From assembly GCA_973895155.1 (NCBI GenBank), contig OZ316897.1, forward strand, positions 21,799,455-21,863,454: a stretch of 64,000 nt of DNA, in the 5' to 3' direction. Below the pieces are notes generated by a model. It saw only the letters and a list, made by a program, of their open reading frames with translations. It did no database searches and was not told where the DNA came from. This stretch comes from Marsupella aquatica (taxonomy: Eukaryota > Plantae > Marchantiophyta). A program made the position numbers and the translations under genes. Positions 13,804-51,782 of this stretch are shown piece by piece. Numbering within the stretch: the stretch's first letter is position 1; each line of letters opens with the position of its first letter.

Positions 13804-14534
13804 CGTGGAAAGGTTGAAAAGGTCCTGCAAAGTAAGTCAGACCCATCCCTCAGTTAGTCCCAGCAAAGCAATCGCATGGGCTGCAAGCGCTTGCTATATT
13901 ATCAGAATGATATGCAATCAGATGTTGTGCGTATTGCGAAAAACAACGAAACAACGAAACAGCTTTGTCCATCAAACAAGTTTGGCATCTATGAAAGCTT
14001 GGCACAAAAATCGAATCCAGTCGACTGCCTATGTTCTAACGCTGCTGAGAGTGAAAGCAATGGCATCATTCAAACATAAAAGTTGCGCCATCGCGCGTCT
14101 TCACAGAACGTTTGTCTCACGAGGCTAAGTTACGGATATATTACTCAGCTCAGGTAAGGTACTAGAATTGAGCCGCCACGAGTTCAGCTGCGACTTCACT
14201 TGTAAAATCGAATGGCAGTGGTGAGAATGAGAATGAGTTTACGGTGGTTTGCATGGCTTAAATACTACTCTGGTGTAGACCTAGCTTTCTTCCAAGTCTG
14301 GACTGTGGAGTCGTGCCAAGTCTGTGTAGCAGGGCTTATCTTCCCAACGGAGGACAATTGACTGCAATTCATTTCTTTCGAGCTAGTATCACTTTCAACA
14401 GACGTGCTGCAGTTTGGGTACGGTCATTTTCTGTGGGAAAGTTCACTCTTACTGCAGACGAGAGGTGTCACTACGATGGGCTCAATCACAATTGAATAGA
14501 AATCACTCAGTGAGGCACAGTAGTACGAGGCATA

Positions 14535-14566
14535 TACGGAATACCAAATGTTGCACATTGTTTTTC
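14535..14566 (+). repeat. Left TIR of IS3EU-like element
   Basis: TACGGAATACCAAATGTTGCACATTGTTTTTC, preceded by GGCATA. Confidence 0.9.
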
Positions 14567-17500: not shown

Positions 17501-17824
17501 CTTGATAATATCCTCTTGTCCAGCTAAGATCATCAGTACATTGTCAAATAACAAAAATAATTGCAATAGTCCTGATCACTATATAGAGAACTAACTTTTA
17601 ACGTCTGATAGCAAGTTGGTCCACCTCCATGCCAAGGTGCTAACTAAGCCATGCAGAGGTGGCACTCCACAACTATTGCTCACAAAAAGGCCTCTACTTA
17701 GATAAATTTAGTGACTCTTGCATTTGGAGGGTTAAGATATGCATACTCAATGATTTGAGAAAGAGCGTTACCAAAATGCAGATTCAGGGCAACATTGGAT
17801 TTGAAAATGCAGATTCAGGGCAAC

Positions 17825-18489
17825 ATTGGATTTGAGGGACGGGAGGATTAATTTCATGAAAATTTAAGACAAACAAATGAGGCACAATGTATGGTCTAAA
17901 ATAATATTTTGGCAGTTGTGGGCAGTATGAACTATCAGTGGGCGCGCAGGCGGTGTGTGATAAAGTGATTATTCCTAGAAGGGGTTTAAGTATGAAATTG
18001 AGAAATTTCCAAACTTTTCAAACCTTACATAGTGCATTATGGGGATGGAAAGATCTTTGAGTAACGTCAAGATGGCAAAGACATTGTGGCCGACCCAAAT
18101 ATTAGTGACGTCCCTCTAGTAGGGAGGTCCAGCCTATGACCAAATAATGGCTTTTGCTTAAAGCAATATTGGATTTGAGGGACAAGAGTATTTCATGCAA
18201 ATTTAAGACAAACAAACGAGGCAGAGTGTATGGTCTAAAATAATATTTTGGCAGTTTGGGGCATTGTGAACTATCAACTATTGCTAGGGGCAGGAGGTGT
18301 GTGATATAGTGGTTATTCCTAGAAGGGTTATAAAGTATTAAATTGAGAAATTTTTAAACTTTTCAAACCTTACATGGTGTTTAATGAGGACGGCAATATC
18401 TTTGGGTAAAGTCAAGATGACAAAGACATTGTGGTCGGCCCAAATATTAGTTATGTTCCTCGAGTAGGGAGGTCCAGCCTATGACCAAA
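17825..18489. repeat. Diverged tandem duplication (~343-bp period, 2 copies)
   Basis: attggatttgagggac...agggaggtccagcctatgaccaaa at ~17825-18144 and ~18168-18489; a short exact direct repeat (aaaatgcagattcagggcaacattggatttg x2) precedes it. Confidence 0.85.
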
Positions 18490-19331: not shown

Positions 19332-19627
19332 CTCGGGGGTCTCACTACATGGGGACCTCCCCATCACCTGCGACGTTTTTAGGCCTTGGACCCCCTAAAA
19401 TGTAAGAAAAAAATTTATTTTTTAACCCCTATAAAGTTAGAATATTCTTGGAATATTCCAAAAATTGGATTAAAAAGGCCCTAATGTTCTTATAAGTCTC
19501 AAAATTGAATTAAAAAGACTCTATTGTTCTTCTACAAAAATTCTTAAGTCTTCCCTTACAACCAATAAAATGACCCTATCCTTCGTCGCACGTGATATGC
19601 CATTTTTGTGGAAGTGAAACCCCCGAG
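19332..19627. mobile_element. MITE (296 bp), copy 1
   Basis: TIRs CTCGGGGGT(C/T)TCACT; 8-bp TSD GGTTACAA; homologous in inverted orientation to 38344-38640. Confidence 0.9.
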
Positions 19628-20118: not shown

Positions 20119-21914
20119 TCATGACCTTTTTTCTGGCAAATCATTAAAATTTAGTTGTTGATGTACATAGGCTGTCAACCCCATAGTGGCACGAGAACTA
20201 CTTTCACATTCAAGAGAAAGCAGCAAATGCATTCTGAACTTGTCCTCCTCCGATAAGACTCCAATCTGATTAGTTTCATATGCAAAATCACGGATATCAC
20301 GAAGACTCTGCACCCAAAAAAAAGAATTTGGTGAATTGGAAATTAATGAAAAGAATATGCAACCAAATAAAATACATTTTGCTTCACTTACCTCATCGTC
20401 TAAATCTTTAACACCATGTTCAAAGTTTCCATGATCATCATTATGATTCCAATAATCAGTGCCAATAGTCTCGATAATATCATCTGCATCTTGATATCAA
20501 CTTGACCTTCTTCAGGATATGGTGGAGGTAAAACTATTTTAGATTCTTTGTCTCTTGCTTGAAAAGCAAGTTGAGGAATGTGTGATGGCCTGTTCACACC
20601 TCGTTCTCGCACCACTCTCACTGTATGGGCATTCCATGTTAGAATGATATCATTTACAGCATTCTGAATGAATGGAAGAAGTACAATAACAATGGAGTAT
20701 CTATGCAAGGGATTATCCATTTGCAAAAATCCTTCCTCGTATGATAGAGTATGAAATAAGTCCTTATAATGACCCAATCCTTGTTTCTTCAAGAATCCCC
20801 AAAATGCTTCGATCCTCTGTAAAAATCACAATGATTGTAAAAAATTAGTATGTTCCTTGAAATCATTTTTCCTTTTATAAGTTAAGGCCACAAAAACCCC
20901 GTGGCAGAGGGGAAACAACCATGCCATCAAAAATCCAGCTAAACAACATGACCCTTGGGAGGGCGGGCAGAAAGCATTAACAACGTACACAAACAACAAA
21001 TAGGCATCGCGGCCAATGCAACATTGGGCCCCCATAAGTCCCATAGGCAAAAAATTAGTATGTTAGTAAACATATCAAGCAAATAATTTTGATAACATAT
21101 AGTTGAGTTTAAGTACTACCTGATTATGAACTAAAGAACCTTTGCAAAAACAATGAGTATTTGGTCTTGCCCTTTCAAGATTATTTTGGACCAAAATATG
21201 CTCAATCGCATAATCATAACGAATTAATAAAGGATGACCAAATCTTTGAACCGCATTTTTATACCCTTCATAAATAGTCCGGGCTTTCTTATTTAATGCA
21301 ACATGCATATACATAACATAATGTGTAGCTCCATCGATAGCTCCATGAATTCTAATTCCATAATTTGGTAATTTGTCATATGCTGCACAAGAAATTAAAC
21401 AAAATTAGTACATCATTTCATGATCATGAACAAACTATCTGAATCATATATAGTCAAAAAATGATTGATTCAATCTAAATAAAAGGATATAAATACTTGA
21501 ATTTTACTCACAATCCATATGCCAAATATGCATTGCTTCGGTGACATCATAAACCCGACGTATTAGACATCCGCGTGCTCTTGATGCAAGTAATCCTGGA
21601 ACTAAAACATCCAAGGCATCACGTACAAGCGTTCTTGGAACTTTGTATCCAGCTCTTTGTAATCGTGCCTTTATCATTCTTATTCCTCAATCTTTTGCAT
21701 ATCCATATATGAGAATAAACTCTAGAATCAATTGCCGAACCTCCTCAAGCGTATATGTTGGATACATTTTCTCTCCATTATTAAATACTTTCAACCATCG
21801 CCATAAGGTAATTCGATCTATTCCAAGTGCTAACGCACATTCCTTCATAGTATAACCGATGTGAAGTGCTGCCATCACATCTTCACACATTGAATTGATG
21901 TTTGTTGCATCCAT
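20119..21914 (-). pseudogene. IS3EU-type (integrase-core-like) DDE transposase, 4 exons, disrupted
   Basis: Exons ~21914-21512, 21382-21120, 20816-20392, ~20309-20119 with GT-AG introns. N-terminal HTH (KECALALGIDRITLWRW), GIRMIKARL, RRVYDVTEAMHIWHMD-SYDKL, IHGAIDG, GHPLLIRYD, GSLVHNQ-RIEAFW, WNAH. In-frame TGA at 21687-21689 and a frameshift late in exon 3. Confidence 0.85.
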
Positions 21915-22287: not shown

Positions 22288-23642
22288 TTATGCATTTTCA
22301 TTTGAAAATGTGTAGGCACCACCTAGCTTCTCATTAATTGCAATCCCAACTACGTATACCGGTTCTATAGGGGAACATCTGTACGAGGTGGCGTGCATAT
22401 CTTTTCCACGAAGAAAGAAAATATCCCCATCTAATATTGGAATCTTTATTCCATACTCAATAACAACTAGATGTCCACCTCATTCCTCCATTGAGGGATT
22501 TGATGCCATGAACATAGTGTATTTACTACAATCATGATCATTATGAACTATATTACAGTAGTTCTTTGTAAAAAATAGAGGATATGCTGGTATAGCATGT
22601 TTCACAACGTTGGGCTTGGAAAAGTATTGAAGTAATTCTTTGCTTAGATCCATGAAAGGATCTTTGCAATCCAAAAATTCCCTCACCGGCAAAAAATAAT
22701 CACAAAATAATAGGAAAATAATTTCAAATAAGATTCGATGGGAGCATTGCTCATGAATTAACTCCAATTGCAATGCGCTAATCGGAGTTGTATCAGCAAT
22801 CTTTAACTTATCCCTGTAATAACTCACAAAATATGCTCCTTTTCATTCTCTCCAATTCACAAGTGGCCCCACAACTCGCATTGTTTCAATCAATGTTGAT
22901 CTCGAATTAGCTCTACGAACAGTCCATTTGTGATTGTAGGCATCAATTATTGAATGCCTTAGAAATGGTCGATCGCCCTCTGGAACAACTCCTTTCATTC
23001 GTCCCCCTATTATTTCATTGGTAGACCTATCTTTCCAGATTTCAATAGATGACAAGGGATCCATACATAAAAGTTACTTGGTATCACCTTCCATACAATA
23101 TGTCGTTATGTTTTGGGTGGGCTAAATCCTCTCTCAATCAAGAAAGCATTTTTATGTTTCACAAGAAACTTTGGGCTTCTCTTCGCAAATGTCTTTACTG
23201 GGATTTTATGTTCTTCAAATTTTTTAAAATGATCTGCCTTCCGATTTATATATAAAATTGGATCTTTACAAAACTTTCGGACCCTGGTGGCAATCTCATT
23301 CCCAAGCGAAGATAGATTGTACCGGAAAGTGATCAAGTGGACTATTGTTTTCCACTGATTGGCAGTAAAATACTCAGACCAACGACCGGTTTTCCCCAAG
23401 AAGTGAAAACCAGAATAAAATTTTGATAACTCTCCCTTCATTTTCCCACCGGAAAAGATGTGCACACCATATTCAAAGAGTAACCAATCACCGAGTAACC
23501 ATTTAAGTAAAAACTGAATATGTAATTTTCCCAACTGAGATGTAAGAGTGATGAGCTCACAAAAATAAATAGCAGCCTTAGGAAGAGGCTGGATTTTGGT
23601 GATGTCTGTTGGATTTTGATGATCATTAAATTGAATCTGCAC
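22288..23642 (-). pseudogene. TET/JBP-like 2OG-Fe(II) dioxygenase with unknown N-terminal region, disrupted
   Basis: Reading through TGA at 22843-22845 and 22480-22482 gives FFTKNYCNIVHNDHD (HxD, 22545-22537)...GGHLVVIEYGIKIPILDGDIFFLRGKDMHAT (distal His 22395-22393)...VVGIAIN, a double-stranded beta-helix signature. The upstream ORF 23106..23642 joins via one frameshift and a TAA. Confidence 0.65.
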
Positions 23643-24557
23643 AAATAAGATTATTTATCAACATAAAGTGATAAAGAACTTAGTAATTTAGTATAGTTTA
23701 CTAGTTAATCAATATTTTGATTGACATCTTGGACCATAGTGATTTCAAATCGAATTCGAAGCATATCAACGCTAGGCACTGAGGATTCCAACATAAATAA
23801 TCTGAAAGTTTCACCCCCCCCGGAATATCAATTCCTCTTGATTTTACTCACAAAACTATGGTCTCCAAAATATAGCAATATAATGATGATAATTAATATC
23901 TTATAATAGATTGTATACTATTGGCAACAAGGTAAGATTCTTACCATTTCATCAGATTTGGAAGAAGTTTGCCTTTTCTTTCCCCTTCTTTCATTTACTT
24001 TTGCATCATTGTTACTCAATTTTAAGCCTTTCATTGAATCTACAATGAATGACAATCTATCATGAATATCAACTTTTTCATATAATTGTTCAAACAAAAA
24101 ATAACACTAACCATTCACATATTCAATCACAGGTACTTATTTGACACATAGAATTACTTTCTATAGCCTAATCTTTAGGTATGTCTATTTCTTGACATAA
24201 TAATTTTGGATATTGTTTGTATTAATGTATTCCAAACTCCATCAACAAATATAAAATTGAAGTATGCAAATTGCATGCATGCAACAATAGATGAGGCAAA
24301 AAGAGAAATGGTCACCTCGTCACCACAAATTAGCCAGTTTTCCAAATCCAAAGTTGTCTTCAAAATTGATATCTCTGCACTTTCCAAAAAATATATCAAG
24401 CTTAAGGTCCCATTGGCCATAATACAAAATCTAATGGATCCAAGTTACTATGAGTCCTCCAAAATATTCTCAATAAAATTAAATTTTTTTCACTCTTTTG
24501 TCCTTTCCTAATTTGATGGCCTATGGTGTTTTAGTCAAAGAGTCTATTGGATAAACT

Positions 24558-25243
24558 TTAGAGCCAAGAAATATGATCATGAACAGGGGTCTGCAAAGTG
24601 GGATCAATGGGATGGAGATGACAATAGAAGAACCATCTGTCAACTTCATGGGCACTATGATCATATATCTTTCGATCGCAAGCATATCCTTCTGCCTGAC
24701 ATTCCTTCAAACAGTAAAAATACCACATTGTGGGGCATCGAATGCAATGGACAATATCTGTCCAATTGAGGTCATCCTGTTCACCACATGCCTTGCATGT
24801 ATGTAACGGGCAGATAGGGGTGTGTGATGGCAGACACGCACCGCAAAAAGACCTTACACAAAATCTATCTGAACATTTTTGAACATATTGTGGAGAGTCA
24901 AGAGAACCCTCCAAATTCCCCAACTTTCCACATTGGGCACACTTTGCATGTTTATGTATGCAGTCTTTGCACTTCCACTTCCCATGTTGGCCAGAAGGTG
25001 GGGAAGACCGACCCCTAGACAATTATTCTCTGCTGCATGCAGAGATTGTGCATTGAGATGAAAGTGCCTCAAGCATGGTCCATCACAAATGACTAACTCT
25101 CCACCATCATCACAAATGGCACAACAATGGGCTACTTTTTGGTAGATTTGTTCGCGTGAAAACTTCAAAACATGTGGTCCAAACACAGTTGAATGTCTCA
25201 CCTCGCCCTTATCTTTTCTACATGGTTGTTTAGGACGAGCCAT
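24558..25243 (-). pseudogene. EDM2-like composite PHD-finger region, one frameshift
   Basis: CAICDDGGELVICDGPCLRHFH...KWKCKDCIHKHAKCAQCGKLG...CPLHTCKAC...CIRCPTMW...FYCHLHPIDPTLQTPVHDHI matches the EDM2 PHD block as I recall it, including the YCxxHxIDxxLxTPVxDH tail; overlapping ORFs 24854..25243 and 24558..25022 are joined by a 1-nt frameshift near 25000. Confidence 0.8.
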
Positions 25244-25389
25244 GCCTGCACATCCATAAACAAAATTAATTGTTAGAAGTCATAAAAAGTTGGCATAAAA
25301 TCGGAACTAACAAATCATCAAAAATACACAATAATACTACTATTCAATGAGCTATTCAAGATTCATGTACAAATTAGTTGCATACTTCA

Positions 25390-27985
25390 ATCTACATAAC
25401 AAGTCCAAGTACATGTTGTTCTCTTAGCCATGCAAGTCCCTCACAAGATGCAGGTATGATAAGAGTCGTGGCTGCCAAATGTCCCTTCTTTGAACTACTC
25501 ATAAACGAAATTAATATTCACTAAGGAAAGCAGGGTTTGAGAGATGGAATCAGAGATGGCAAAATTTCTAGAGCCACATTCCCTTACCAGAATGGGACCA
25601 AACTTTGCCTGCACATACCCCAGTAGTAGACAACGTGCTGGTGAAGTAAGAGCACCAACAAAGCTTTGGTTGAAAAATGAAAAATCAGAGCCTTTGTGGG
25701 GTACTCCTGCCTCCTAAGCAACCTTTGACTTCTCTCCCTTGCCACTATTAAAACCAGCTTCGACTTGCTAGATCTGCAACCAAGTCCAAGTGCATGTTTT
25801 CCTCTTAGCCAGGTCCCTAACAAGATGGTGGTTCATAAGAGTCGTAGCTGTCAAATGTCCCTACTTTGAAGTACACAGAAACCTATCGTTCGTTAAGGGA
25901 AGGAACATTTAAGAGATGGAAGCAGGCAGCGTGGAATTTTGGGAGCCACATTCATTGCATGGAATGGCACCAAACTTGGCTAGCACGTACCTCAAGTAGT
26001 AGACAATGTCCTGGCAAAGTTACAGCATGAATAAAGCTTTCAATGAGAAATGAAAAATCGGATGCTCCGAGGCGGTCCTCCTGCCTCCCAAGCCACCTTT
26101 GAATCCTCTCCCTTGCCACTACTTTGATCAGCTCGTACTTGCTAGACCTGCAAACAAGTCCAACTACATTGTGTTCTCTCAGCCACTTCCCTAACAAGAT
26201 GATAGTATCACAAGAGTCGTAGCTGTTGAACATCACTGCTTTGAAGTACTTAGAAATCAATCGTTCAGTAAGGGAAGCAATGTTGAAGAGATGGAAGCAG
26301 GGAGCGTGGAATTTCTGGAGCCACATTCCCAAGGCCGAAGGCAACCAAACTTGGCCAGCACGTACCTCAAGTAGTAGACAATGTCCTGGCAAAGTTACAG
26401 TATGAACGGAGATTTCAGTGAAGAATGAAAAATCGGATGCTCCAAGGTGGTCACCCTGCCTCCCAAGCCACCTTCGAATCCTCTGCTTTGCCACTATTTC
26501 AATCAGCTCGTACTTGCTAGACCTACAAACAAGTCCAACTACATTGTGTTCTCTCAGCCATGCCCCCTACAAGATGGTGGTGTCACAGGAGTTGTAGTTG
26601 TTGAACGTTGAACGTCACTGCTTTGAAGTACTCAAAAACGAATCATTCAGTAAGGGAAGCAATGTTTAAGAGATGGAAGCAGGGAGCGTGGAATTTCTGG
26701 AGCCACATTCCCAAGGCCGAATGGCACCAAACTCGGCCAGCACGTACCTCAAGTAGTAGACAATGTCCTGACAAAGTTACAGCATGAACGGAGATTTCAG
26801 TGAGAAATGAAAAATCGGATGCTCCGAGGAGGTCTTCCTGCCTCCCAAGCCGCCTTCGAATCGTCTCGCTTGCCACTACTTTGATCAGCTCGTACTTGCT
26901 AGACCTGCAAACAAGTCCAACTACATTGTGTTCTCTCAGCCACGGCCTTAACAAGATGATGGTATCACAAGAGTCGTAGCTGTTGAACATCACTGCTTTG
27001 AAGTACTCAGAAATCAATCGTTCAATAAGGGAAGCAATGTTGAAGAGATGGAAGCAGGGAGCGTGGAATTTCTGGAGCCACATTTCCAAGGCGGAATGGC
27101 ACCAAACTCGGCCAGCACGTACCTCAAGTAGTAGACAATGTCCTGACAAAGTTACAGCATGAACGGAGATTTCAGTGAGAAATGAAAAATCGGATGCTCC
27201 GAGGCGGTCCTCCTGCCTCCCAAGCCGCCTTCGAATCGTCTCCCTTGCCACTACTTTGATCAGCTCGTACTTGCTAGACCTGCAAACAAGTCCAACTATA
27301 TTGTGTTGTCTCAGCCACGTCCCCTACAAGATGATGGTGTCACAGGAGTCGTAGCTGTTGAACATCACTACCTTGAAGTACTCAGAAACCAATCGTTCAC
27401 TAAGGGAAGCAACGTTTAAGAGATGGAAGTAGGGAGTGTGGAATTTCTGGAGCCACATTCCCAACGCGGAATGACACCAAACTCGGCCAGCACGTACCTC
27501 AAGTAGTAGAAAATGTCCTGGCAAGGTACAGCATGAACGAAGATTTCAGTGAGGAATGAAAAATCGGATGCTCCGAGGCGGTCCTCCTGCCTCCCAAGCC
27601 ACCTTCGACTCCTCTCCCTTGCTACTATCTCAATTAGCTCGTACTTGCTAGACCTACAAACAAGTCCAACTACATTCTGTTCTCTCAGCCACGTGCCTAA
27701 CAAGATGGTGATATCACAGGAGTCGTAGCTGTTGAACGTCACTGCTTTTAAGTACTCTGAAACCAATGGTTCCGTAAAGGAAGCAATGATGAAGAGATGG
27801 AACGAGGGAGCGTGGAATTTCTGGAGCCACATTCCCTAGAGGGAATGGGACCAAACTTGGCCAGCACGTACCTCAAGTAGTAGACAATGTCCTGGCAAAG
27901 TTACAGCATGAACGGAGATTTCAGTGAGAAATGAAAAATTGGATGCTCCGAGACGGTCCTCCTGCCTCCTAACCAACTTCGACTT
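25390..27985. repeat. Tandem array, ~375-bp unit, ~7 copies
   Basis: Anchor gaatttctggagccacatt at ~25562, 25934, 26309, 26691, 27066, 27441, 27815 (spacings 372, 375, 382, 375, 375, 374). Confidence 0.95.
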
Positions 27986-28191
27986 CTGTTGCTTGCCAAG
28001 TCTATTTCGACTTCTCTCTTGCAAGGATTCAAAGGAGTGTTTGACCAAGTTTGAGGGTGTGTCATCAGGTTCAATAACTTTATTGTGTGACAAAGTGTTG
28101 GCCGTTGATTTTGTTGGCGGCTCATCTCCCTCCTCAGGTTGGGTTGAAATGAATTGAACTCCTGATACATACGCTTGAAAACCCTAGAAAT

Positions 28192-29288
28192 AAAAACACA
28201 TATAAGAAATCTCAATGGGTATGGCTACCTAGTTTGGGAGCCTACTGAAGTTACTTAATTTGTCCTATTGAGATTTTGTGTCTGTGTTTTTGTTTTGAAT
28301 TATTTTGTAAGATAACCATAAGGAACATAACCATGAAAGGCTTATTTTACAAGGTTCCTTAGTTTTGGTTACCTTATGTTAATTAAAGAACATCACCATC
28401 AAACCCAAAACCAACCACCCTACATTAGTGGATATCAATGTCATAAACCCGGAGGACGTTGCAAGAATTTTGTTAGTTAATTAAGTTCATATGAAACCAA
28501 ATTAAATTGGTCCTGAAGACCTGGACCCACATTTTGGTTATTGGTGAGAGTAAGGACTACCATAATATATTGTATATAGAAAGGGCCAAACAAAGTACAA
28601 TGAAGAGCAAACAAAATTTGTCCAACGAGTACAAAGGCAGAAGAAGCAGGTGCAACTTTGATTTAATTTTATTTAATAATGAGAGTGGTTATGCTTTTGT
28701 TTGATTACACTTTTCTTCTATGTGAAAGTGATGTGTCCTTTGTGACTGGCCCTTAGAGGAAAGTAAATGGGAAGTCCAATATGGAAGTAAGAACCCAGTA
28801 TGTTCTTGGTGGATGATCAACAATCCTGGGTCACGTCAATCCTATGGTGGAAGAGGTCCAATGATGACTACAATAATTTCCCACTGGGATAGAAATTTCC
28901 ACTTGTACCCAATCTTTATCCTCTGGTTTTAATTGAGTTGTAGGGTGAGTAGGGGACTGAAGATGCATATGGTTGGTACAATATGCTTGCAGTGTTATTT
29001 TCAGATTAGAAAAGGGAACAAATATAATTGACTTGTTGAGGAAGCACGGGTGGGCAAAGTTTTTATCAAATTTAAGTCTTTGAAAGTATTTAACTAACAT
29101 TGGGGCACATTTGATTGATTATATTCTGAACTTTCTTGATATCTCAAGGAAATCATTTTTAGAACATAATTTAATATCTAGAATCAAATCTGAATAAAAT
29201 AGTTTAACTAGTTTAATGAAAAGGTTCAATCACATCAAAAAAAATATTGTCCTTCTTAAATTTTTCCAGGGAACCAAAAGAAACTTGT
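28192..29288 (+). repeat. ~1.1-kb direct repeat, copy A
   Basis: aaaaacacatat...ggaaccaaaagaaacttgt shared with 30955-32043; begins with a ~110-nt hairpin. Confidence 0.85.
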
Positions 29289-29569
29289 CGATACTAGGGA
29301 AATAGTTTAGGCTTAGCCAAATTTTTTGCTTAGCCCTAACCTATTAGCCTTCAATCAATAAATAAAGTGGGTTGATTTATTTGTGGTGTTTGTTGGATTG
29401 TTCAGATGACAAGTATAACCACCTTATTCTGGTTTCTACATTGGGTGGTTACATCATTCCTGGCATGAGTAATAACATTTGGCATTGCATGGATAAGACA
29501 CTATATACACCAAGGCATCCATCTGACTTTTACTTCTCTGCTAATGAGGGCCCTCACAACACTACTCCC

Positions 29570-38343: not shown

Positions 38344-38640
38344 CTCGGGGGTTTCACTTCCACAAAAATGGCATATCACGTGCGACGAAGTATAGGGTCA
38401 TTTTATTGGTTCGAAGGGAAGACTTAAGAATTTTCTGAGAAGAACAATAGGGTCTTTTAAATCCAATTTTGGGACTTATAAGAACGTTAGGGTCTTTATA
38501 ACCAAAATTTGAGAATATTCTGAGAATATTCCAACTTTATAGGGGTCAAAAAATTAAAAATTTTTCTTACATTTTAGGGGGTCCGAGGCCTAAAAACGTC
38601 GCAGGTGATGGGGAGACATCCATACAATGAGACCCCCGAG
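38344..38640. mobile_element. MITE (297 bp), copy 2
   Basis: Same TIRs CTCGGGGG...CCCCCGAG; own 8-bp TSD ACAGTACT; inverted relative to copy 1. Confidence 0.9.
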
Positions 38641-39752
38641 ACAGTACTTGCCAGGGACTACCTTTCCAATCCAAACAGTATCACTTTTGTGCATACTTTA
38701 TCTTCTTTGCTTCTTTGCTTCTATTGAAGTACTTGCGGGCCCGCTTGCGGAACTACTTGTTGATCAAGTTTGTCAACATCTTTCGAGCAATCTTTGAATT
38801 CACTCTGTCTATTGGATTTAGCAAGTGAACACAAGCTACAATTCTATGCAAAATATGGATGAGCCAGCAGAGTCTAGCTATGTACAGCAAAGGAACCTCG
38901 TGCCAGGATATGGTAAAACTCTGAGGACCCCTCCATCTCAAGTATCGGGTGCAGAGCATTCTCATTTGCAAGCCAATGATTCATTATCACCTCCAATCCT
39001 TCCATTTCCATTCTCATATCATCAGTCTGGATACCGGTTTGATGGAGAATCTAGAGGTGGGTTGAATTCACGAAGATGACCACCAATGGTTGCAAGACCT
39101 GCGCCGGTGATCAGGAATAGATCACGTTATGACAAAGAGGTGGAGCGTGCTATACATGTCCCTCTCTTGATCTACGAGGCAGAACAAGTTGACACTGGCT
39201 GTGACACGGATAACATGTCACTTAACGGAACCCAGGTCGTAGATTAGGCCTTATACGGGCATTAGGACCGTAGCCATAGCGTAGAATAGCACGTGTAGCA
39301 GTCTGTTGCCATTATGAATAGATTAGGAGTAGGTTAAAATGACCGAATAATTACGAGTTTAGGAAGAGGATTATTATGCACGACCGAGGTACGGTGGCGG
39401 CAGCGGAGTAAAAATCAGTTAGAGGAATCATGCTTGGACCGAGGCGCCGACTTCAGCTCGTTATCAATGACCAAACGGCCTGGCCTTCTCACGCTCGGGC
39501 TCATCCTGGCACCTCCATAAGAGAGGAGCTGATGGTGCTGCGGGCCATTTGCTCATGTCTACCTTTTTTTGAATTTGCGGACGTTGCCACCCACTCGCCC
39601 TTCTGATCGAATCAAGTCAACCTTTACAAGGAGATTATCGAGGGAGAAGAGCGGAATGTGGCGAGATTTAGTCAGGACGAGTGAGGCCTCCACGAGAAAG
39701 AGGACCAGCCGAGTGGGAACGCGGACTCAACGAACCGGACTATGAGGTTAGT

Positions 39753-42067
39753 ATGACCCTCACAGCCTTGGGATTTTGGACCTTGTTTGGCGAGGTAGGT
39801 GCTAAGTTCTCCGAGACTTACTGGTACTCTGTCCCGAGAAAGCCGCTTACGAACGAAGATACGCGAAGCTGGTGACCAAGATAGCACTGGTTAATTGCGA
39901 AAGGACAGCCATCACCAGGGATTCCAGCTACAACGAGCTGTGAGACTACATCACCGAACTATATCTCAGCGAGGAAGGGCTTAGATCGGTAGCAGAGGCG
40001 ATTCTTGAGGTCCCAGCGAAGTTCTTTAAGCTGAAGGGCAGCCAGCGGCTTACTCAAGCGGAGTTCGACAAGATTCTAGGGTACCTAGACCAGCAGATTG
40101 CAGCCAAAAAGCGCCAAGAAGACATCAGCAAACAACGGGAAGCGGCACGTAATCTTACGTTCCTCGGGGAAAGCTCCAATGCCTTCAACTGGGATATGGC
40201 TACCCCGATACCACCAGTGCCTCAGCCGATGACCACCGGTGTACCGCCAAACCGGTCCCAAGTCCATCCAGTAATCAACACAGAGTGTTCTTTGGGTTCC
40301 GAGCGAGCTAGTCCGCAACTCGAACAGCGTCCTCGTAAGCGGCCAAGGACTACGACGGCCCCCGAATCAACAACGCGGACCAACGCCGCGCCTGCATCTG
40401 CCCTGGTAAACCCCCCGACCAACCAGACCCGACGGCCCCCGGATAACCCGAAGTCCAACTTATTACAGGTAATCCGCGTCCCCAAAGTAGTCTGGATCGC
40501 GATCAAGAAACTTGAACATGCAGACTATCTAAAGGAGCATCAGTTGGAGCAGTTCGCTCACTTGCTTTGGAGGCCGTGCACCACCGAGCCGAAGGAGATT
40601 TGTGAGTTCATCTCCAATTTCGACACTGACGCGTCGACCACCAAGGTTTCGGGGCAGGCCTTATCACTCACGGAGCATCGGTTAATGCAAATCTTCTGCC
40701 TACCAACCGGGCCAGTGCCGGTGGAAATCCGAATTCGGGATAAGGAGTATACGCCGCGGCACTTCAAACCTGAGGGTAAGACGGACAACGGATACAAGCA
40801 GGGGGCATGCACCAACTTAACCTGTATGGAGCGGCTTAACTTCATACGGACTACCCTACACATGATTGAGCCACGATTCGAGATTTCCCTCTGCACGATC
40901 GTGCAGGTGGAACAGTACAAACAATGAAACTGGGCCCAATTCTTCTACCAAAGATTCTCGGGGGAGCTGAAGCGGGCTCAGGGTGGTATGGCTATTGGGG
41001 GGAAGACTTACTTGGGAAGTCATATCGCCATTATCCTCGCCAGGTACAAGGCACGGCGGGAGGCCAGAGGAAAGAATATGGCCACCTCAGCCCCGGCTAA
41101 TGTCACCCCCGCCCCGGAGGAGGCAACCCCGAGCACGCGGACTACCATCCCTCGGGCAAACCCCAAGCCGGAAGCCCCGACTAATACTCCGCCACCTCCT
41201 CCTGTGGAAATTCCGCCGCCCCCTTCCGTTGAGCCTCCACTACCCGCAGTACAACCACCCCCAATCCCTCCACCACCTGAAGATATCTTCCCCTCCCCAG
41301 CGTTGACTACAGAGGAGATCATTGCTCCACCCGAGGAGCCACCGGTACCCGAGAGGATGGAGGACTACCAAGTAGCCCCGGGGACCATGGCCTACGACCT
41401 GGTCCACAAGTTTAGCCAGACTATGTCTGGGGAGCTGGCAACATACATCGGACAACAAGTCTCGACGTACTTTCAACCAGCCTTCTTCATGTTAGAGCAC
41501 CAACCACGGATCGTAAGCCGCTTGGAAGAAGAACTCATGGCGAAGGGGAATGAGATCGGGCACCTCCAGATGCTGGTAGAGCACCTCGAGGAGGAGGCAA
41601 CAACCCGCCGCGAGGAGTTAGTCCGCACCGTCGAACAGCAGGACAGACTAACCCAAGAGTTAAGCGGAGCGCAGGCCAAACTCAAGAAGCTGGATGACAC
41701 CGTGCTTCAATTACGCTCAGAATCTTCGGCTCAGGTTACCAGCCTGACCGACCTCAACAAACAATTCCTGCAGGTAGCACAGCAGGTGGCTAGTCTCTCC
41801 GCCGAACGAGATAAATTGCTAGCGCAGGACCAGATCCATCGTGACTCCATCGACCAGCTCAATCTGGAGGTAGCGCGGCTCCAGACCGAGGCTGATGAAG
41901 CTGCAAATGAGGCGGAGGAGGCGGTACGGGACAACAAGGCCTTGCAGGACCGCATTACCCTACTCGTCCTCCAGCGGGGAAAACCTGGGCCCACCTCTGA
42001 TCAAGGCGGCTCGAGGTCTTGTCCCGACAAGGGGACTAGCCCTAGTCCAACCACTGCACACACGTAA
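39753..42067 (+). pseudogene. ATHILA ORF1 / plant transposon protein-like gene with Pro-rich linker and coiled coil, disrupted
   Basis: EFISNFD...KVSGQALSLTEHRLMQIFCLP...NWAQFFYQRF...YLGSHIAIILA resembles the EFYxN...VRG...LGLP...NW motif set; frameshift near 39830, TGA at 39941-39943 and 40925-40927. Confidence 0.55.
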
Positions 42068-42739
42068 GGGGTGGTTAGCGAAGGGTGGAAGCAGGCGCCG
42101 TGCGAGGCAGTTAAGACAACGACATCTTTTGGTTAGGCGTAACGACAGAATGACTGTCATTAGGCACCGATTAGCGGCAGTAAGAAGAATTAGGGCCGGA
42201 TCAGTTAGGATCAGCCAACGTAGGATGGAGTCCATCAACGGACTAGAGTTTGTCAGTAGGCTTGGCCGCTGCCATCCCGGTTGGCACCTTGTCATCGACG
42301 GTCAACCAGTCAGTGCGGCGCGGCCAGTAGTCAGTAGGTAGTTAGTCAGTAGGTAGTATCCCGGAAGGCAGTATCCTCCGGCTCTCCTCCGCGATTGTAG
42401 TATGTGACGCCAATGACATGGTCCTTATTTTGTAATCTGATTAAGTAGGTTGCTGTATGCAAGGAGTAGCTATTGATATTACATAACAATTAGCAAGATG
42501 GCAAGAATAAGGGCAATCATGGCGTTAAGAGTAGGGAAATAAAAACTATGTCGCGGGTGGTCGACGACCATATCTCTTTCAATATGTCACCAAATCCGGA
42601 TCTGTAAAGAGCATTGGAAAGATCTGGTCAAGGCAAGTAAAATCGATATAAAACACTCGGGAAACGGAGGTGTATTAAGAGAAATACGGCCTGATTAGTG
42701 TGACGGGTTAACTTATGGCCGGAATTAGCGGATTCGGCT

Positions 42740-43085
42740 TCAGTTTCGGGTTAACCCAAGCTCGACCACGGCTTAGCTTATGTGAGCACGGCTTCAGCTT
42801 AGCTCAGGTAAGCACGACTTCAGCTTAGCTCAGGTGAGCACGGCTTCAGTTTAGCTAAGGTAAGCACGGCTTCAACTTAGCTTAGGTCAGCACAGCTTCA
42901 GCTTAGGCTTAACCTAGGTTCGGATTAGATTGAACTCGGGTTAGCCTAAACTCGGGCTCAGCTTAGGGTAGGTTAGCGGATAGCGGGTAGCGGCCTAACC
43001 CGAGACCACGGGTTAGCTCTACTCGGGTTAGATAGGATAGCTAGGTTAGCCAAACTCGGGTTAGCTATGTAACTCGGGTTAGCGC
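42740..43085. repeat. Minisatellites inside the LTR-like unit
   Basis: 26-bp unit gcacggcttcagcttagctcaggt(a/g)a x ~5 and dispersed actcgggttag motifs. Confidence 0.85.
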
Positions 43086-45458
43086 AGCAGTGAGTACCCC
43101 CTCTCGGTTGCGGGGGCATAACTCTCTGTGTATTTGACCAAATCGGATATAATTGACCTCGTTGGAAAGAGGAGCTCAAGCCGCTTCCAACGCTGCTATC
43201 CACGCAGCAAATGGTTGAATACAGAAATCGGGAGAGGAGGCGTAAGCTCGCGAAAACCATGGAGGAGGGCCAAATCCGAAGTACATAGCCAATTCGAGAT
43301 AGAAATAAAGCTGCAAGTTAGGGTTCAGTAGTTAGAGATAGTGGCGGCTCTGTTAGGGCTGGGATGGGGCTCCAGCAGCGTACTACCCAGCCATTTGGGC
43401 TCATTATGAGAGTATATAGAGCAGCCCCCCGGTAGAGATGGGGGGGGGGGGACTTCAGTTGTGTGATCTCACTTAGACTGAGCAACAGGGAGGAGCTCTG
43501 TGCAAGCAAGGCTGGACTTGGACGCTGCGTGTTGGGGAGAGCTTGGTTGTGCTATTACTCAGGGAGTAATCAGCCAAGCTTCACAGCAACGGGTTGCTAG
43601 GTTTGCGAGCTGGATTGTGGCTCTTTCTAGTGAGTAGCACAACTGGGTTCTTTTCCCCCAATATAGAGCCTTGGTGATAGGTGATGTATTGGTGATTGTA
43701 AACTGTGGGGAGGATGTCAATTTGATTTGTGGTGAGCACATTAGGGAGGCTGAGACACTGATTGAGGGGCAGCAGGAGGAGCATTTACAGTTCAGTCTGG
43801 CAAGGCTACGTGATCCATGGGGAGTCCCGGCCTTTGTCTGGTGGAGAGCACTAAGGGATCTATGGCCAGAGCGGAGCTTGCAGGGCAAGCGTGAGGCCGG
43901 GCCTCATTGCAGTCTGGGGTAGATCGCCGTTAGGCCTGGTACCAGCTTTGAAGTCGAGTCAACTATGTATGCGTAACTTGACGTTCTGAATTGGAGGTGT
44001 GAGATCTGTATGTGCCCCCAAGAATGAAGTGCAGTGAAGGAGGTTGAGTTCAGGATTGAGTTTGCAAGGCAAGTACGGGATTGGTTTGAGTCCAATATGC
44101 CGTCGCAATCTGGAGTGAGCCGGGCTCAGGTTCAGGATTGAGCTTGCATGGCAAGCATGGGGCTTGCGGGGCAAGCACGCTGCAATCTGGAGTAGACAGC
44201 CTTCGGGCCTATTGTTCGGATCAAGTGTTCTCAGTGAACTATTGTGCACATCGTTGAATCTAATTGAGTTTTCCTCTCAGGCCTCATTTCTCTCTTGGAT
44301 GTGTGTGTGTGTGAGGCAATCTAAGTGTATGATGGGACTAGCAGCGCCACTAAGAGGTGTACAGGGTGCATTGAAGCGGGCTGGGTGAGGACTGTCATAG
44401 CTCTGATTGCTGAGAGTGGAATGGCAGAGTGGTGGGGCAATGGCTTAGAAGTCCCTAAGCCGGGAATCAGTCAAGAGTCACTGGTTTATGGGTACATTCC
44501 GGCGGCGGAATAGAAACATACCTATGACAGTAAGCATACGTATAGACCTATGCGCACCGTAGCGCTAGGCCCTGTGTGTACGGGCCCGATATGAAGACTC
44601 CTTCTCACCAGAACTATCATGAGCGCGGATCTGATTCCCAACCTTGGTTCTTAGGGATTGAGCTTGGGTGATGTGTGACGGAGTCTTGTTATGATAGTCT
44701 GGTGTTAAGGGCATAAATTGGTGTTTACCGGCCTTCACAGCATCCCTTCGTGATCCTCAGGTACAAGGAGATGGTTTTGGCACCCATAGTGACGTCTTTG
44801 GTGTTAAGACCCATGTCAATCGCGTGACATAGTATTTAGGCTTCCCCTTCCGCTATGGAAGGGGGAGAAGGCTTAGTTATCTCAGCAAAAGAAAGGTGAG
44901 GCACGGGGAGTCCCGGCCTGAGCAGGGTCAGAGCGCACCAAGGAGTGAGAGCCAGAGTCGAGCTTGCTGGGCAAGTGCGAGGCAGGGCCTCGTAGAGACT
45001 GGGCATCGACTGCCGTTGGGCCTGCTGACCCCCTTTGAAGTGGAGTCAACCATGTAAACTGATGCTTCGCTGAGTAAATGTAGTCTTTTCCCCCTAATGT
45101 TTCCGCAAGTAACTGGTGTTGTGTGTATGCTTTGTCTGGGTAAAGGCGCCATTTTAAGGGACGTACCGGGTGCGGAGTAATGGTAGGGATTGCCACTCAT
45201 TGTATGTCACAAGGTCCTATCGTGTCAATGGCTTGAATGGCCCCAAGCCGGGAGTTAGTCCGAGTCACTAACTGAGGGAATATTCCAGCGGTGGAAAACA
45301 AATATACCTATGACTAGTACGAATTATGCAAGTGTTATACCAGTAAGTATATCGACTTAGCCCGACTTAGGGCTAATAGAGGTCACTACACACCTCCTTG
45401 CCCTCACCCTCACCCTTACTGGTGGTCGAGGTCACACCATGGCACTAAACTGGATTTA

Positions 45459-47494
45459 AGGCTCGACAGAAGGGGGCGGTGGAATTTCCTCAGGGGGCGG
45501 TGGCAGAGTATTAGTCGGGGCTTCCGGCTTGGGGTTTGCCCGAGGGACGGTAGTCCGCGTAGTCGGGGTTGCCTCCTCTGGGGCGGGGGTGACATTACCC
45601 GGGGCTGAGGTGGCCATATTCTTTCCTCTGGCCTCCCGCCGTGCCTTGTACCAGGCGAGGATAATGGCGATATGACTTCCCAAGTAAGTCTTCCCCCCAA
45701 TAGCCATACCACCCTGAGCCCGCTTCAGCTCCCCCGAGAATCTCCGGTAGAAGAATTGGGCCCAGTTTCGTCATTTGTACTGTTCCACCTGCACGATCGT
45801 GCAGAGGGAAATCTCGGATCGTGGCTCAATCATGTGTAGGGTAGTCCGTATGAAGTTAAGCCGCTCCATACAGGTTAAGTTGGTGCACGCCCCCTGCTTG
45901 TATCCGTTGTCCGTCTTACCCTCGGGTTTGAAGTGCCGCGGCGTATACTCCTTATCCCGAATTCGGATTTCCACCGGCACCGGCCCGGTTGGTAGGCAGA
46001 AGATTTGCGTTAACCGATGCTCCGTGAGTGATAAGGCCTGCCCCGAAACCTTGGTGGTCGACGCGTCAGTGTCGAAATTGGAGATGAACTCACAAATCTC
46101 CTTTGGCCCGGCGGCGCACGGCCTCCATAGCAAGTGGGCGAACCGCTCCAACTGATGCTCCTTGAGATAGTCCGCATGTTCGAGTTTCTTGATTGCGATC
46201 CAGACTACTTCGGGGATGCGGATTACCTGTAATAAGTTGGACTTTGGGTTATCCGGGGGCCGTCGGGTCTGGTTGGTCGGGGGGTTTGCCGGGGCAGGTG
46301 CAGGCGCGGCGTCGGTCCGTGTTGATTCGGGGGCCGTCGTAGTCCTTGGCCGCTTACGAGGACGCTGTTCAAGTTGTGGACTAGCTCGCTCGGAACCCGA
46401 AGAACACTCCGTGTTGATTATTGGACGAACTTGGGACTGGTTCGGCGGTACTCCGGTGGTCATCGGTTGAGGCACTGGTGGTATCCGGGTAGCCATATCC
46501 CAGTTGAAGGCGTTGGAGCTTTCCCCGAGGAACGTAAGATTACGCGCCACTTCCCGTTGTCTGTTGATGTCTTCCTGGCGCTTTTCGGTTGCGATCTGCT
46601 GGTCTAGGTACCCCAGAATCTTGTCGAACTCCGCTTGAGTAAGCCGCTGGTTGCCCTTCAGCTTAAAGAACTTCGCTGGAACCTCAAGAATCGCCTCAGC
46701 TACCGATCTAAGCCCTTCCTCGCTGAGATATAGTTCGGTGATGTAGTCTCGCAGCTCGTTGTAGCTGGAATCCCTGGTGATGGCTGTCCTTTCGCAATTA
46801 ACCAGTGCTACCTTGGTCACCAGCCTCGCGTATCTTCGTTCGTAAGCGGCTTTCTCGGGGCAAGAGTACCAGTAAGTCTCGGAGAACTTAGCACCTACCT
46901 CGCCAAACAAGGTCCAAAATCCCAAGGCTGTGAGGGTCATACTAACCTCGTAGTCCGGTTCGTTGAGTCCGCGTTCCCACCCGGCTGGTCCTCTGTCTCG
47001 TGGAGGCCTCGCTTGTCCTGACTAAATCTCGCCACATTCCGCTCTTCTCCCTCGATAATCTCCTTGTAAAGGTCGACTCGATTCGATCAGCAGGGCGAGT
47101 GGGTGGCAACGTCCGCGAATTCAAAGAAAGGTAGACATGAGCAAATGGCCCGCAGCACCATCGGCTCCTCTCTTATGGAGGTGCCAGGATGAGCCCGAGC
47201 GTGAGAAGGCCAGGCCGTTTTGGTCATTGATAGCGAGCTGAAGTCGGCGCCTCGGTCCAAGCGTGATTCTTCTAACTGATTTTTACTCCGCTGCCGCCAC
47301 CGTACCTCGGTCGCGCGTAATAATCCCCTTCCTGAACTCGTAATGATTCGATCATCTTAACCTACTCCTAATCTAATCATAATGGCAACAGACGGCTATA
47401 CGTGCTATTCTACACTATGGCTACGGTCCTAATGACCGTATAAGTCCTAATCTACGACCTGGGTCCGGTCAAGTGACACGTTACCCGTGTCACA
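45459..47494 (-). mobile_element. Truncated second copy of the LTR-like unit (first ~2 kb), inverted
   Basis: Reverse complement of 39200-~41236; begins TGTGACACGG at 47494; ORFs 45771..46940 and 45456..45707 are near-identical to copy-1 peptides. Confidence 0.85.
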
Positions 47495-47559
47495 ACAACT
47501 CAATCGTACCCTCTAATATCTGTTGAAAGCACCAAGGAGCCCATGTCCCTGCTCTGTCG

Positions 47560-49051: not shown

Positions 49052-49083
49052 GAAAAACACTCTGCAACATTTGGTATTCCGTA
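49052..49083 (-). repeat. Right TIR of IS3EU-like element
   Basis: Reverse complement TACGGAATACCAAATGTTGCAGAGTGTTTTTC; followed on the + strand by GGCATA. Confidence 0.9.
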
Positions 49084-51782
49084 GGCATACTGTTTTACCC
49101 GACAATATAAAAAGTGTTCCCCCCCCCCAGTCCCCCCCCCCCCTCTGAGTGTTTTGAATTTCCTTTATGTACTACTCCTCCTCTTCAGGTCTATATTAAT
49201 GTTTCAATCTTGCATTGCCAACCCTTTGTTCTATACATCCTAGCTAGACTCTCTTAGGCAACCAGTTGCGTGGGTTTTCACATTTTCATCTCGACTCCAT
49301 CAGTGTCGATCAAGTCACAAGTTAAGGTCCATCTGCAGAACTGCAAGATTCAGGGGAAGGACAAATGATTTTCTATATAAGTAAAATCAAATCTTTCCTT
49401 CAATATCGTGAGTGATAAAATGAGACGTTCAATTCAGTCTAGAAAGAGCGGAATAAATATATGTCCAGTGGACCCTCGATTGGACCAGGTATCTGTGGAT
49501 GGTAAAAACACTAGTTAATGCTATATGTCTAAGTACAGAAGAAAACATTTTGCAGTACATTTGGGTTGTGCTGGTCCATAGGGGTTTTAGTTCCAAATAT
49601 ACGCAATGGACAAATATGGCAACCTCTACAGTCCTGTCCTGACCTTTCCCTGAAAAATAACTTTTCTTCCCCATTTGGTTGGCCAGAAAGACCTTCCTGT
49701 GCTTATGTGACCCTCGATCTGTCTCACTATACAGTAGGTGCCTTGCCCTCGCTCTTACCTGCATCAGCCTGCAGCGGTACCTTAGCAGCAGCTGTATGCG
49801 GGTCGCGGTACAATCTGCCGTGACTTATCTTAGGAGGGGCTTTCCAAAGAAATAGCTTAATTAGTGGCTGCATTGGCAGCACTCGCACGTGAAAAAGATT
49901 GGAAAATCTTGCCCAAGAAGGCGATAGTCTTGTAGCACATTTTCCCATTGGTTTAATTGAAAAATTACTCTTGTCCTCCCTCTCTGATGCACCCCAGCCC
50001 TTGGCCTCCCTGATGCAGGGACGTGGAGGAGAGAGAGGGGAGGGAAAGGAGAGAGGAGAAGAGGGAAAGGGGATATAGGGAGAATAATGAGAAAAGGGAA
50101 GAAAAGGAAAAAGAAAAAGAAAAAACCAGATTCTCCCCACTAATTCCCGGTAAAGTTGTAGCCACCGTGGCTCTTTAGGAAGACATCGCTTTCACAATAA
50201 GACTAACCAAAATGAGAACATTTTTGCACTAACAATCACCCATTCAACCAAAACAACTTGTACACAAGTTGCACAACAAGACATGACCCCAAACATGATT
50301 GCACAGGCACACGTCAACAATAATGACGGCCTCCATGACAGCCTATCTGAAACAATATTTGAGTTCCATATCTGAAACAATATTTGAGTTCCATGACTGC
50401 AACATGGCCCCCATGACGACCAGGCCACCAACAACAACACAGTTGCAATGAATAAGCGTGCCAGCTCTCTACAACAGTTTTGTGCCTCACTGACTTTACT
50501 TGCCTTGGAGATTTTCACGCTTTGTAGACATGCATACTTTTGCATCAAGATGAGCAACTTCAATATATATATCTCATGTCACAACATTTCATTTCATAGT
50601 TCTACCCCGAGTTTTGATCACCTGTACTTTTTTGCCTCATCTCAACTCAAGGGCATTAGACTAGTGTAGTATAATTGACATACATTTTATACTTGTAGGA
50701 TCAAACTAGCTCCGATCCAGATATTAAGTGTACGAGGACTACTTGCAAGAAGTTATCTGTCATTGAGACACAAAACACCTATACCCAAGGCGTCGAGCAA
50801 GCAGGATCAACAACACTATTGTAATCTACCCCAAAGTTTGTTATTAGAATTGTTGGTCTTAGATCAAAGATTCAAAGGAGGACAGTAAGAACAATATGCT
50901 GAAAGAGTGAAGTGGGTAGCTGTCGTCCAGTGTCTTTAACCGTGTTTTCCTGGTGGTTGATCTGGGTTACCCCCTGCGAGAAATGGTCACCAGGAGAATG
51001 CTATCTCATATATGGATCGAGAGAATGACCAATGGGCTCTTGCCTAGCATGGAAGCCCGCGTGCACTGTGTGCTGTTAGCTGACTTTTTCTCTCTATATA
51101 TCTGGGACAGAGTCGAGATCTAAAGATGATGAGCCACGTCGGGAGATAGTACAGTTTACATTAGAAAGTAGTGTGAAGGTGGGTGGACGTCAGTGAAGTT
51201 GCGAAGTTCATCATGTTAGTGTAAGCTGGGCGGAGGCAAAGGAAGGTTTAGGAGAAGATCTTCCATGTGAACATGTATTACAGTGGTCGTCACAGGGTGC
51301 TACACTGATATAGGTCAATGTCGAAGCATTTTGTTTAAGGGAAGAGACGTTGCGTCGGCTCTGCCAATCCATTGGGTCCACATGGCAACAAGTTTCTGGA
51401 GACTACACTATTCACCGTAATTAGTGTTATGCCGGAATTAGTGTTATGTCCAAATTAGTGTTAGTCACACTTATTTATGTGAACTTGGTCTGGAAGCAAA
51501 AGTAACACTAATTGGTGTCGGTTTCTAAAATCTTTTTTGAGGTTTTGTTTTAAATATTTTGTTTAACACACTATAGAGCACCTAGAAGTGAAAGCTCTGT
51601 AGTAGTGGAGTCAAAGCTTTGTAGTCGTGGAGTCAGGGCTAGAAGATTTGAGGGCTCCGCAACATTTAGTGTCGCGCGCAATAGTTTTTGGAGGTTTTAT
51701 TTCAAGGTGCGGAGAGCGCTATAGTCGTGGAGGCTAAAGTGGGATCTTTTTCTAGTCAGTGCACATTGAACCAGCGCTCAGG

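Follow-up and report, generated by a model that had tools for sequence, protein, structure and literature searches.

Can a plant DNA transposon carry, between its own ends, genes that act against its silencing by the host? The question is raised by a stretch of 64,000 nucleotides (the window) from the liverwort Marsupella aquatica (NCBI GenBank assembly GCA_973895155.1, contig OZ316897.1, positions 21,799,455 to 21,863,454 of the forward strand), in which a giant transposon of the IS3EU/GingerRoot superfamily encloses a transposase gene, a putative TET/JBP-like dioxygenase gene, and a region of PHD fingers. An earlier interpretation, here called the sequence-only reading, had proposed that the dioxygenase and the PHD fingers form an anti-silencing system. 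The element is a real, decayed member of a mobile family, and its dioxygenase very probably belongs to the TET/JBP family, to which its predicted fold is closest. Whether the two genes together constitute anti-silencing cargo is an evenly balanced matter. The element is delimited by the following features, numbered from the first letter of the window:

14529..14534, left target-site duplication (TSD), GGCATA, from sequence comparison of the ends
14535..14566, plus strand, left terminal inverted repeat (TIR), first bases TACGG; a contig of public run X3 starts exactly at 14535
49052..49083, minus strand, right TIR, final bases CCGTA; loose contig ends lie exactly behind 49083/49084
49084..49089, right TSD, GGCATA, from sequence comparison of the ends

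The two inverted repeats (TACGG..CCGTA) are identical at 30 of 32 positions, the opening 21 bases being perfect, and their similarity reaches 53 bp at 81% identity. Perfect inverted repeats of 21 bp occurred in none of 100 composition-preserving block shuffles of the window. The TIR-bounded span (14535-49083) measures 34.5 kb. Nested inserts, comprising two 0.3-kb miniature inverted-repeat transposable elements (MITEs), a 1.4-kb TIR piece, and an 8.3-kb foldback, total ~10.3 kb, leaving ~24 kb, or ~22 kb if a less clear 2.2-kb piece (35.4-37.7 kb) is also deducted. The sequence-only reading had given 32-bp TIRs (TAC...GTA), a perfect 6-bp TSD, the same total and net lengths, and a head-to-tail order of PHD, dioxygenase, and DDE transposase genes on the minus strand, all of which were recovered when ends and coding regions were read again. 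It named neither the broken state of the three genes nor the tandem array next to the PHD region. GC content falls from ~45% in the left flank to 34-40% across most of the element. By a rough count, the observed/expected ratio of CHG sites is 0.59-0.84 in the element's own parts, lower than the 1.15-1.21 of the left flank and the 0.98 of the right flank; that of CpG is less distinctive (0.22-0.60 in element parts vs. 0.52-0.75 in the flanks). Contamination was rejected, since a TSD bounds the element inside plant-type flanks and both it and these flanks are covered by the same runs. Its genes and the array that adjoins them are as follows:

20119..21914, minus strand, IS3EU/GingerRoot DDE transposase gene with an N-terminal helix-turn-helix (HTH), a readable DDE triad, and GT-AG introns (Pfam, splice sites)
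22288..23654, minus strand, TET/JBP-like 2-oxoglutarate (2OG)-Fe(II) dioxygenase gene, ~450 aa (homolog alignment, predicted fold)
24558..25246, minus strand, NSD/EDM2-type multi-PHD-finger region, ~230 aa, with a possible splice acceptor at its 5' edge (sub-cutoff Pfam matches, PDB)
25398..27982, tandem array directly upstream of the PHD region, 6.9 copies of 375 bp (repeat finding)

The PHD region and the dioxygenase gene are separated by 904 bases, and the dioxygenase and transposase genes by 374. The transposase gene carries one in-frame stop in exon 1 (21687-21689) and a probable frameshift near 20490. Two of its exons match the Pfam family rva_4 (PF24764) above cutoff (E 7e-14 and 5e-9), and the N-terminal HTH is matched weakly by HTH_23, below cutoff (E 6e-4). 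Counted by hand, the DDE core shares 51 of 106 residues (~48%) with the GingerRoot query printed in PMC6839031. Elements of IS3EU are defined by TA..TA ends and 6-bp TSDs and form a single clade with GingerRoot (PMC10045372), their plant lineage (PMC6839031, PMC10045372), which within plants is on record, in the published descriptions, only from bryophytes and lycophytes. The present TIRs likewise have TA..TA termini, the TSD is 6 bp long, and the integrase-like DDE domain has an N-terminal HTH and no HHCC. As judged from these features, the element belongs to the IS3EU/GingerRoot superfamily. With TIRs of ~32 bp, rather than 100-150 bp, and a net length of ~24 kb, rather than 3.9-12.9 kb, it is, by the same sequence features, within the GingerRoot clade and outside the families described from Selaginella. 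The IS3EU-type assignment of the sequence-only reading is thus upheld by the rva_4 match, the termini, and the TSD; its label is corrected, in that the plant lineage of IS3EU should be called GingerRoot.

The dioxygenase gene has a frameshift near 23064 and three in-frame stops. A phmmer search of 1.84 billion representative proteins (E<=1e-3) returned 21 matches, of which 20 are credible; P0021, a 1219-aa repeat protein, was set aside as spurious. The homologs derive from Logan, ENA/NCBI, and JGI assemblies. Ten were looked up: each is a singleton cluster, and the two that bear a name are both called 'hypothetical protein'. Full-length open homologs exist (P0010 and P0013, of 449 and 457 aa), and P0017 matches both frames of the window dioxygenase, which indicates one gene of ~450 aa. 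The N-terminal piece matches P0017 (E 1e-10) and not P0013 (E 0.17). An HxDxD motif (H177, D179, and D181) is invariant across all 19 aligned rows. Each of the 16 rows that extend as far as the distal His has this residue, at 21-68% identity, and an Arg five residues past it is conserved in 13 of these 16. The order of motifs agrees by eye with that of the PU-type TET domains of Kojima's Table S1 (PMC12730594).

The dioxygenase piece had no PDB sequence match and its catalytic part no PHROGs match; the family profile gave three PDB matches, all non-significant, including a beta-hydroxylase (E 0.6). Word-based searches returned none among 277 candidates for longer homologs and one among 196 for near homologs. 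A metagenome locus scan with A1 confirmed 0 of 589 candidates and a viral scan with P0024 confirmed 0 of 2, while the motif pattern was found in no prokaryote genome, no viral contig, and two metagenome loci. One of the candidate loci, L001, proved to be a chance motif match in a bacterial gene, with no tblastn match. Another, L002, on a JGI metagenome contig, contains an open TET-like open reading frame (ORF) at 2300-3211 on the minus strand, 41.5% identical to the window protein. This ORF converges on a coiled-coil-like ORF. An unrooted tree of 19 rows (P0007, P0015, P0017, and P0021 omitted) contains one well-supported group of six that includes the window protein and L002; the tree is silent on origin because it has no taxa and no root.

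A model of the dioxygenase built on a 20-row alignment reached a predicted local distance difference test (pLDDT) score of 69 and a predicted template modelling (pTM) score of 0.70; a single-sequence AlphaFold model (pLDDT 34) was discarded. With Foldseek, CcTet, CMD1, and NgTET1 fill all listed rows down to rank 16 (best E 2.7e-6); the highest non-TET entry stands at rank 22 (E 2e-4). With VIA-align, run against 48,161 chains, NgTET1 is first (Z 13.8, root-mean-square deviation 3.9, 205 residues aligned) and AlkB second (Z 12.6, deviation 3.3, 175 aligned), followed in the same family as NgTET1 by TET2 (Z 12.0, 226 aligned), CMD1 (11.6, 210), and CcTet (11.3, 210). TET entries thus align over 205-226 residues, against at most 192 for the other rows listed. 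Atlas neighbours of P0010 score 0.92-0.96, and some of their clusters carry PF20515 (15% of members) or PF12851, Tet_JBP (16%). The TET/JBP-like character claimed by the sequence-only reading is borne out by these three methods.

The PHD region, whose frame is broken once, near 24999, has NSD-type Pfam matches that both fall under the cutoff of 27 bits (PF23011, E 7e-6, 26.6 bits; PF23004, E 5e-4, 20.6 bits). Its best PDB sequence match is NSD2 (E 1e-7); the second piece has no PDB match, and a word-based search for longer homologs confirmed none of 14 candidates. The region may, as the sequence-only reading proposed, resemble EDM2 more closely. EDM2 is described as having 2.5 atypical PHD repeats and further domains and as binding H3K9me2-marked chromatin (PMC7529245), and PHDs of its type are reported from many eukaryotes (PMC3632883). 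The PGR, ELP (methyltransferase-like), and proline-rich regions of EDM2 are absent here, the frame ending at 24558 directly after the PHDs. Among the 375-bp units upstream, two of seven have an uninterrupted minus-strand frame of 125 codons; with a dN/dS of ~0.8, the units evolve near-neutrally. An RFTS-like domain in the unit was considered and found no support (no Pfam match, no PDB profile match, a best Atlas score of 0.79, and the dN/dS value). The array resembles the tandem targets of VANC in VANDAL elements (PMC5735166), by analogy only.

Evidence for other copies comes from contigs of four of six listed public runs (X1-X4; two studies, two organisms), whose summed depth cannot be taken as a count of copies. 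Contigs depart from the right-hand TIR exactly behind 49083/49084 into other sequence (at least 2+3 in X1, one in X2, two in X4, and none among the X3 rows listed); since both TIRs match at this point, either end of a copy could be represented. Such departures at the terminal base, into differing flanks, indicate a multi-copy family. No empty site with a single GGCATA, and no paired TSDs at other copies, appeared among the loose-end matches listed. An X1 loose-end consensus opens with five bases reverse-complementary to the start of one in X4, perhaps the two ends of another TSD-sharing insertion; this is only a hint, because consensus rows are mixtures. Diverged relatives are present as well, in the right arm (33 differences in 264 bases) and in the dioxygenase gene alike (35 in 389; 57 in 447). 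One subfamily is ~12% diverged, and pieces 87-91% identical also cover the gene. An internally deleted form (joint 48641 -> 49031) occurs in three of the four runs. The main contigs differ from the window by ~1%, skip the first MITE in three runs, and hold one extra base at the dioxygenase frameshift in all four runs and at the PHD frameshift in three, from which it follows that better-preserved copies exist. At 22684 they hold three extra bases in all four runs, where the homolog P0004 has one residue more. At the level of contig sequences, these observations point to a low-copy mobile family with better-preserved members. The sequence-only reading had named intact copies elsewhere as a check: insertions with other flanks were found in three of the four runs, with the contig that starts at 14535 added by X3, and no complete second copy with the same gene order was recovered.

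Over the PHD region the picture differs. Summed depth across 24822-25335 is 2-19x the element background and loose ends lie inside the PHD sequence, which implies that similar sequence also occurs elsewhere, in contexts of greater abundance. In X3 and X4 the depth of the wider interval 24308-25335 greatly exceeds that of the remaining element, and in one X4 contig the MITE is joined to PHD sequence; a PHD-bearing repeat of higher abundance may therefore exist in these genomes.

How might such an element act? The dioxygenase of intact copies would act on DNA and oxidise 5-methylcytosine (5mC) or a related base. A second gene would supply the PHD protein, which would bind methylated H3 tails on silenced chromatin and would either bring the oxidase there or compete with the host's own reader; the loss of functional 5mC would permit expression of the transposase. 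The parts of this proposal differ in strength. That TET and PHD genes are both regular cargo of the family is probable, and action of the dioxygenase on DNA to counter silencing is somewhat favoured; cooperation of the PHD protein with the dioxygenase is a tentative suggestion, and rather doubtful. The same anti-silencing role is inferred for TET transposons of fungi (Kojima 2025, PMC12730594), and VANC of VANDAL offers a plant precedent (PMC5735166).

A number of observations weigh against the anti-silencing proposal or the enzyme assignment beneath it. All three genes (PHD, dioxygenase, and transposase) are broken in this copy, and no contig among those listed spans them all, linkage in other copies being drawn from short overlapping contigs and summed depth. 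At L002, the sole homologous locus with context, the 2.3 kb behind the ORF match neither a transposase nor a PHD, and the upstream side is cut off. The CHG depletion of the element's own parts fits a long methylated history and suggests that the family was methylated for long periods. The window dioxygenase matches neither Pfam TET family (Tet_JBP or 2OG-FeII_Oxy_6); when 13 homologs and L002 were compared with Pfam, TET-type matches appeared in four of the 13 and in L002, all sub-cutoff (best PF20515, E 0.0014), in the Tet-like PF20515 and Tet_JBP families. The pLDDT of the model drops below 50 at residues 175-178, the margin of TET over AlkB in VIA-align is only 1.2 Z, and the Atlas recognition of P0010 (1664) is below the level where a high score is strong. 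The Arg of the last core strand, which binds 2OG in TET/JBP enzymes, is missing in alignment A2. Two published IS3EU-borne TETs of PU type likewise lack it (Kojima 2025, PMC12730594). Finally, GingerRoots are known to carry passive host fragments (22/77; PMC6839031).

This last habit underlies an alternative in which the TET gene is working cargo and the PHD region a passive capture, unrelated to the enzyme, from a host EDM2/NSD-like gene or from another repeat. Capture of gene fragments by GingerRoots (PMC6839031), the absence of the other EDM2 domains (PMC7529245), the raised depth and internal loose ends over 24822-25335, and the lack of a PHD match in L002 would all suit such an origin. 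Yet the frame is restored in the main contigs of three of the four runs, and ~230 codons keep their Cys/His spacing without internal intron or stop. The failure of the word-based search to match any longer protein adds weak evidence in the same direction: the region is not obviously a recent host copy. Passive capture is possible, if unlikely. Less probable again, and improbable overall, is that the dioxygenase is TET/JBP-like and makes some other mark (glyceryl-5mC of the CMD1 type, thymine hydroxylation, or oxidation of N6-methyladenine), or that the PHD protein steers integration to heterochromatin instead of reversing silencing. CMD1 and CcTet rank level with NgTET1 in Foldseek, the last-strand Arg is missing, and Kojima 2025 leaves other activities possible for PU/PE types (PMC12730594). 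For integration targeting there is the discussion of transposon-borne PHD, chromo, and MBD domains as integration guides (PMC6673714) and the preference of GingerRoots for gene-poor regions (PMC6839031), against which this copy lies ~4.8 kb from an exon of the IF-2 gene, in a gene-containing region, and its PHD gene is separate and unfused to the transposase.

The broken state of every gene in this copy is also what would be expected if all cargo were a neutral hitch-hiker, and the standing of AlkB and prolyl hydroxylases within 1-2 Z of NgTET1 in VIA-align, together with PDB profile matches that are all non-significant (the beta-hydroxylase among them), would suit a host-derived 2OG oxygenase that does not act on nucleic acid. 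Either is very unlikely: the metal ligands are invariant across 19 diverged rows, open full-length homologs exist, diverged paralogous copies of the gene occur in the same runs, and Atlas, Foldseek, and VIA-align all indicate TET/JBP. The preferred interpretation, a GingerRoot with TET and PHD cargo directed against silencing, is retained at the even strength given at the outset.

The remainder of the element and its left flank contain these features:

4551-9732, minus strand, left flank, IF-2 gene of bacterial type with a long N-terminal extension, in four separated (intron-split) pieces
17820..18489, left arm, tandem duplication of 345 bp without a coding match
19332..19627, nested very-high-copy MITE, 8-bp TSD
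28188..32043, internal direct duplication without a coding match (28188-29288 vs. 30951-32043, 82-89% identity)
33626..35071, TIR element with arms of 28 bp and an unclear TSD, probably nested
35450..37659, possibly nested piece bounded by inverted repeats
38344..38640, second MITE copy, 8-bp TSD, 89% identical to the first
39200..47494, GC-rich nested 8.3-kb foldback, 2.0-kb inverted arms 95% identical, TG..CA ends

No further cargo was found, in that six-frame translations of 14535-20104 and 28201-39203 match no Pfam family at E 0.01. The 8-bp TSD of the first MITE would be hAT-like in length; its depth is ~600x background in all four runs, with the skipping joint in three, and the MITE family accounts for two independent insertions inside the element. 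Each arm of the foldback holds a long ORF (327+379 aa and 416 aa) that contains proline-rich stretches and coiled coils and matches no Pfam family above cutoff; its middle has 26-bp tandem repeats, and the whole of 39200-47494 is not CHG-depleted. In the left flank, the IF-2 gene is likely nuclear and its product organellar, probably the chloroplast factor. Together with the CHG depletion and the plant range of GingerRoot, this gene makes a seed-free land plant the likely host. A 191-aa ORF at 13261-13836 (minus strand), ~700 bp from the left TSD, has a signal-peptide-like start, several cysteines, and no Pfam match. To the right, a Pogo/Tc1-like DDE_1 transposase region (53728-57072, E 6e-5) converges on a tandem-BRCT ORF (56242-57072, E 9e-8); both lie inside inverted repeats near 51403 and 57871, and the whole may be a further transposon with cargo. 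Nested in this region is a 1.27-kb element (51996-53266) whose 32-bp TIRs are perfect.

According to published reports, plants lack TET enzymes. A land-plant TET family borne by a transposon would depart from that rule, and it would make the origin of plant 5-hydroxymethylcytosine (5hmC) testable in these lineages. That the family is invisible at Pfam cutoffs may explain why it was missed. A broader conjecture, unlikely as it stands, is that an unrecognised TET/JBP family exists in seed-free land plants and is spread by giant GingerRoots that pair it with a captured heterochromatin reader, as a self-encoded two-part eraser oxidising 5mC at H3K9-methylated chromatin; if true, land plants would gain an enzymatic source of 5hmC. 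The dioxygenase gene may have come from symbiotic fungi, to which the PU-type motifs and the fungal nearest Atlas clusters would be congenial, though these are not evidence of transfer. A compact PHD and TET pair could serve epigenome editing.

Among known systems, the solved TET/JBP enzymes CcTet, NgTET1, and CMD1 are the best structural matches of the dioxygenase and share its HxD...H triad. The window protein is only 9-15% identical to them and differs in its HxDxD spacing and lack of the last-strand Arg, and its family has an N-terminal region of ~190 aa of no assigned family. The nearest whole elements are the TET-bearing IS3EU transposons of fungi, described from seven rust species and a truffle (Tuber indicum), always with an alpha-kinase (Kojima 2025, PMC12730594). 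The pairing of TET with IS3EU is thus already known, so that the novelty claimed by the sequence-only reading falls in part; what appears new is the plant host and the PHD region. The literature search made here found no TET/JBP gene in a land-plant transposon and no TET and PHD pair; Repbase and earlier TET/JBP surveys lay outside that search and may hold plant entries. In common with the fungal elements as there described are the IS3EU transposase, the 6-bp TSD, TIRs of more than 30 bp, the TAYGG..CCRTA ends (one fungal family opens with the same seven bases), a TET/JBP gene adjoining the transposase (in the same orientation in three families), and the PU-type motif order. The fungal elements measure ~8-13 kb among the rows listed and have the alpha-kinase on the far side of TET, whereas the plant element is far longer even without its inserts and has the PHD gene in that place. 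An alpha-kinase was not found by six-frame Pfam comparison of 14535-20104 and 28201-39203, nor by ORF listing in 47495-49083.

The GingerRoots of Selaginella lepidophylla and mosses (Cerbin et al. 2019, PMC6839031) share with this element the TA..TA ends, 6-bp TSD, DDE core, plant host, and extra coding DNA. They are shorter, with longer TIRs, and their published cargo consists of recent host fragments 79-98% identical to their parents, in contrast to the whole, ancient enzyme gene found here; the main text of that paper makes no mention of a dioxygenase, oxygenase, or PHD. NSD-type PHD fingers are shared with the EDM2/NSD cassettes (PMC7529245, PMC3632883), EDM2 being a large host protein with extra domains. 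CopiaMBD (PMC6673714) likewise carries a chromatin reader on a transposon, but it is a retrotransposon, its reader recognises DNA methylation, and it is described without an oxidase. Like the present element, VANDAL of Arabidopsis (PMC5735166) is a DNA transposon of a plant with internal tandem repeats, and it carries, as is proposed here, its own cargo against silencing; it belongs to the MuDR superfamily, and VANC is a sequence-specific binder not described as a base oxidase. With a GingerRoot that carries a working TET gene, the TET-transposon strategy of fungi would reach into plants, and an enzymatic anti-silencing route would stand beside that of VANC.

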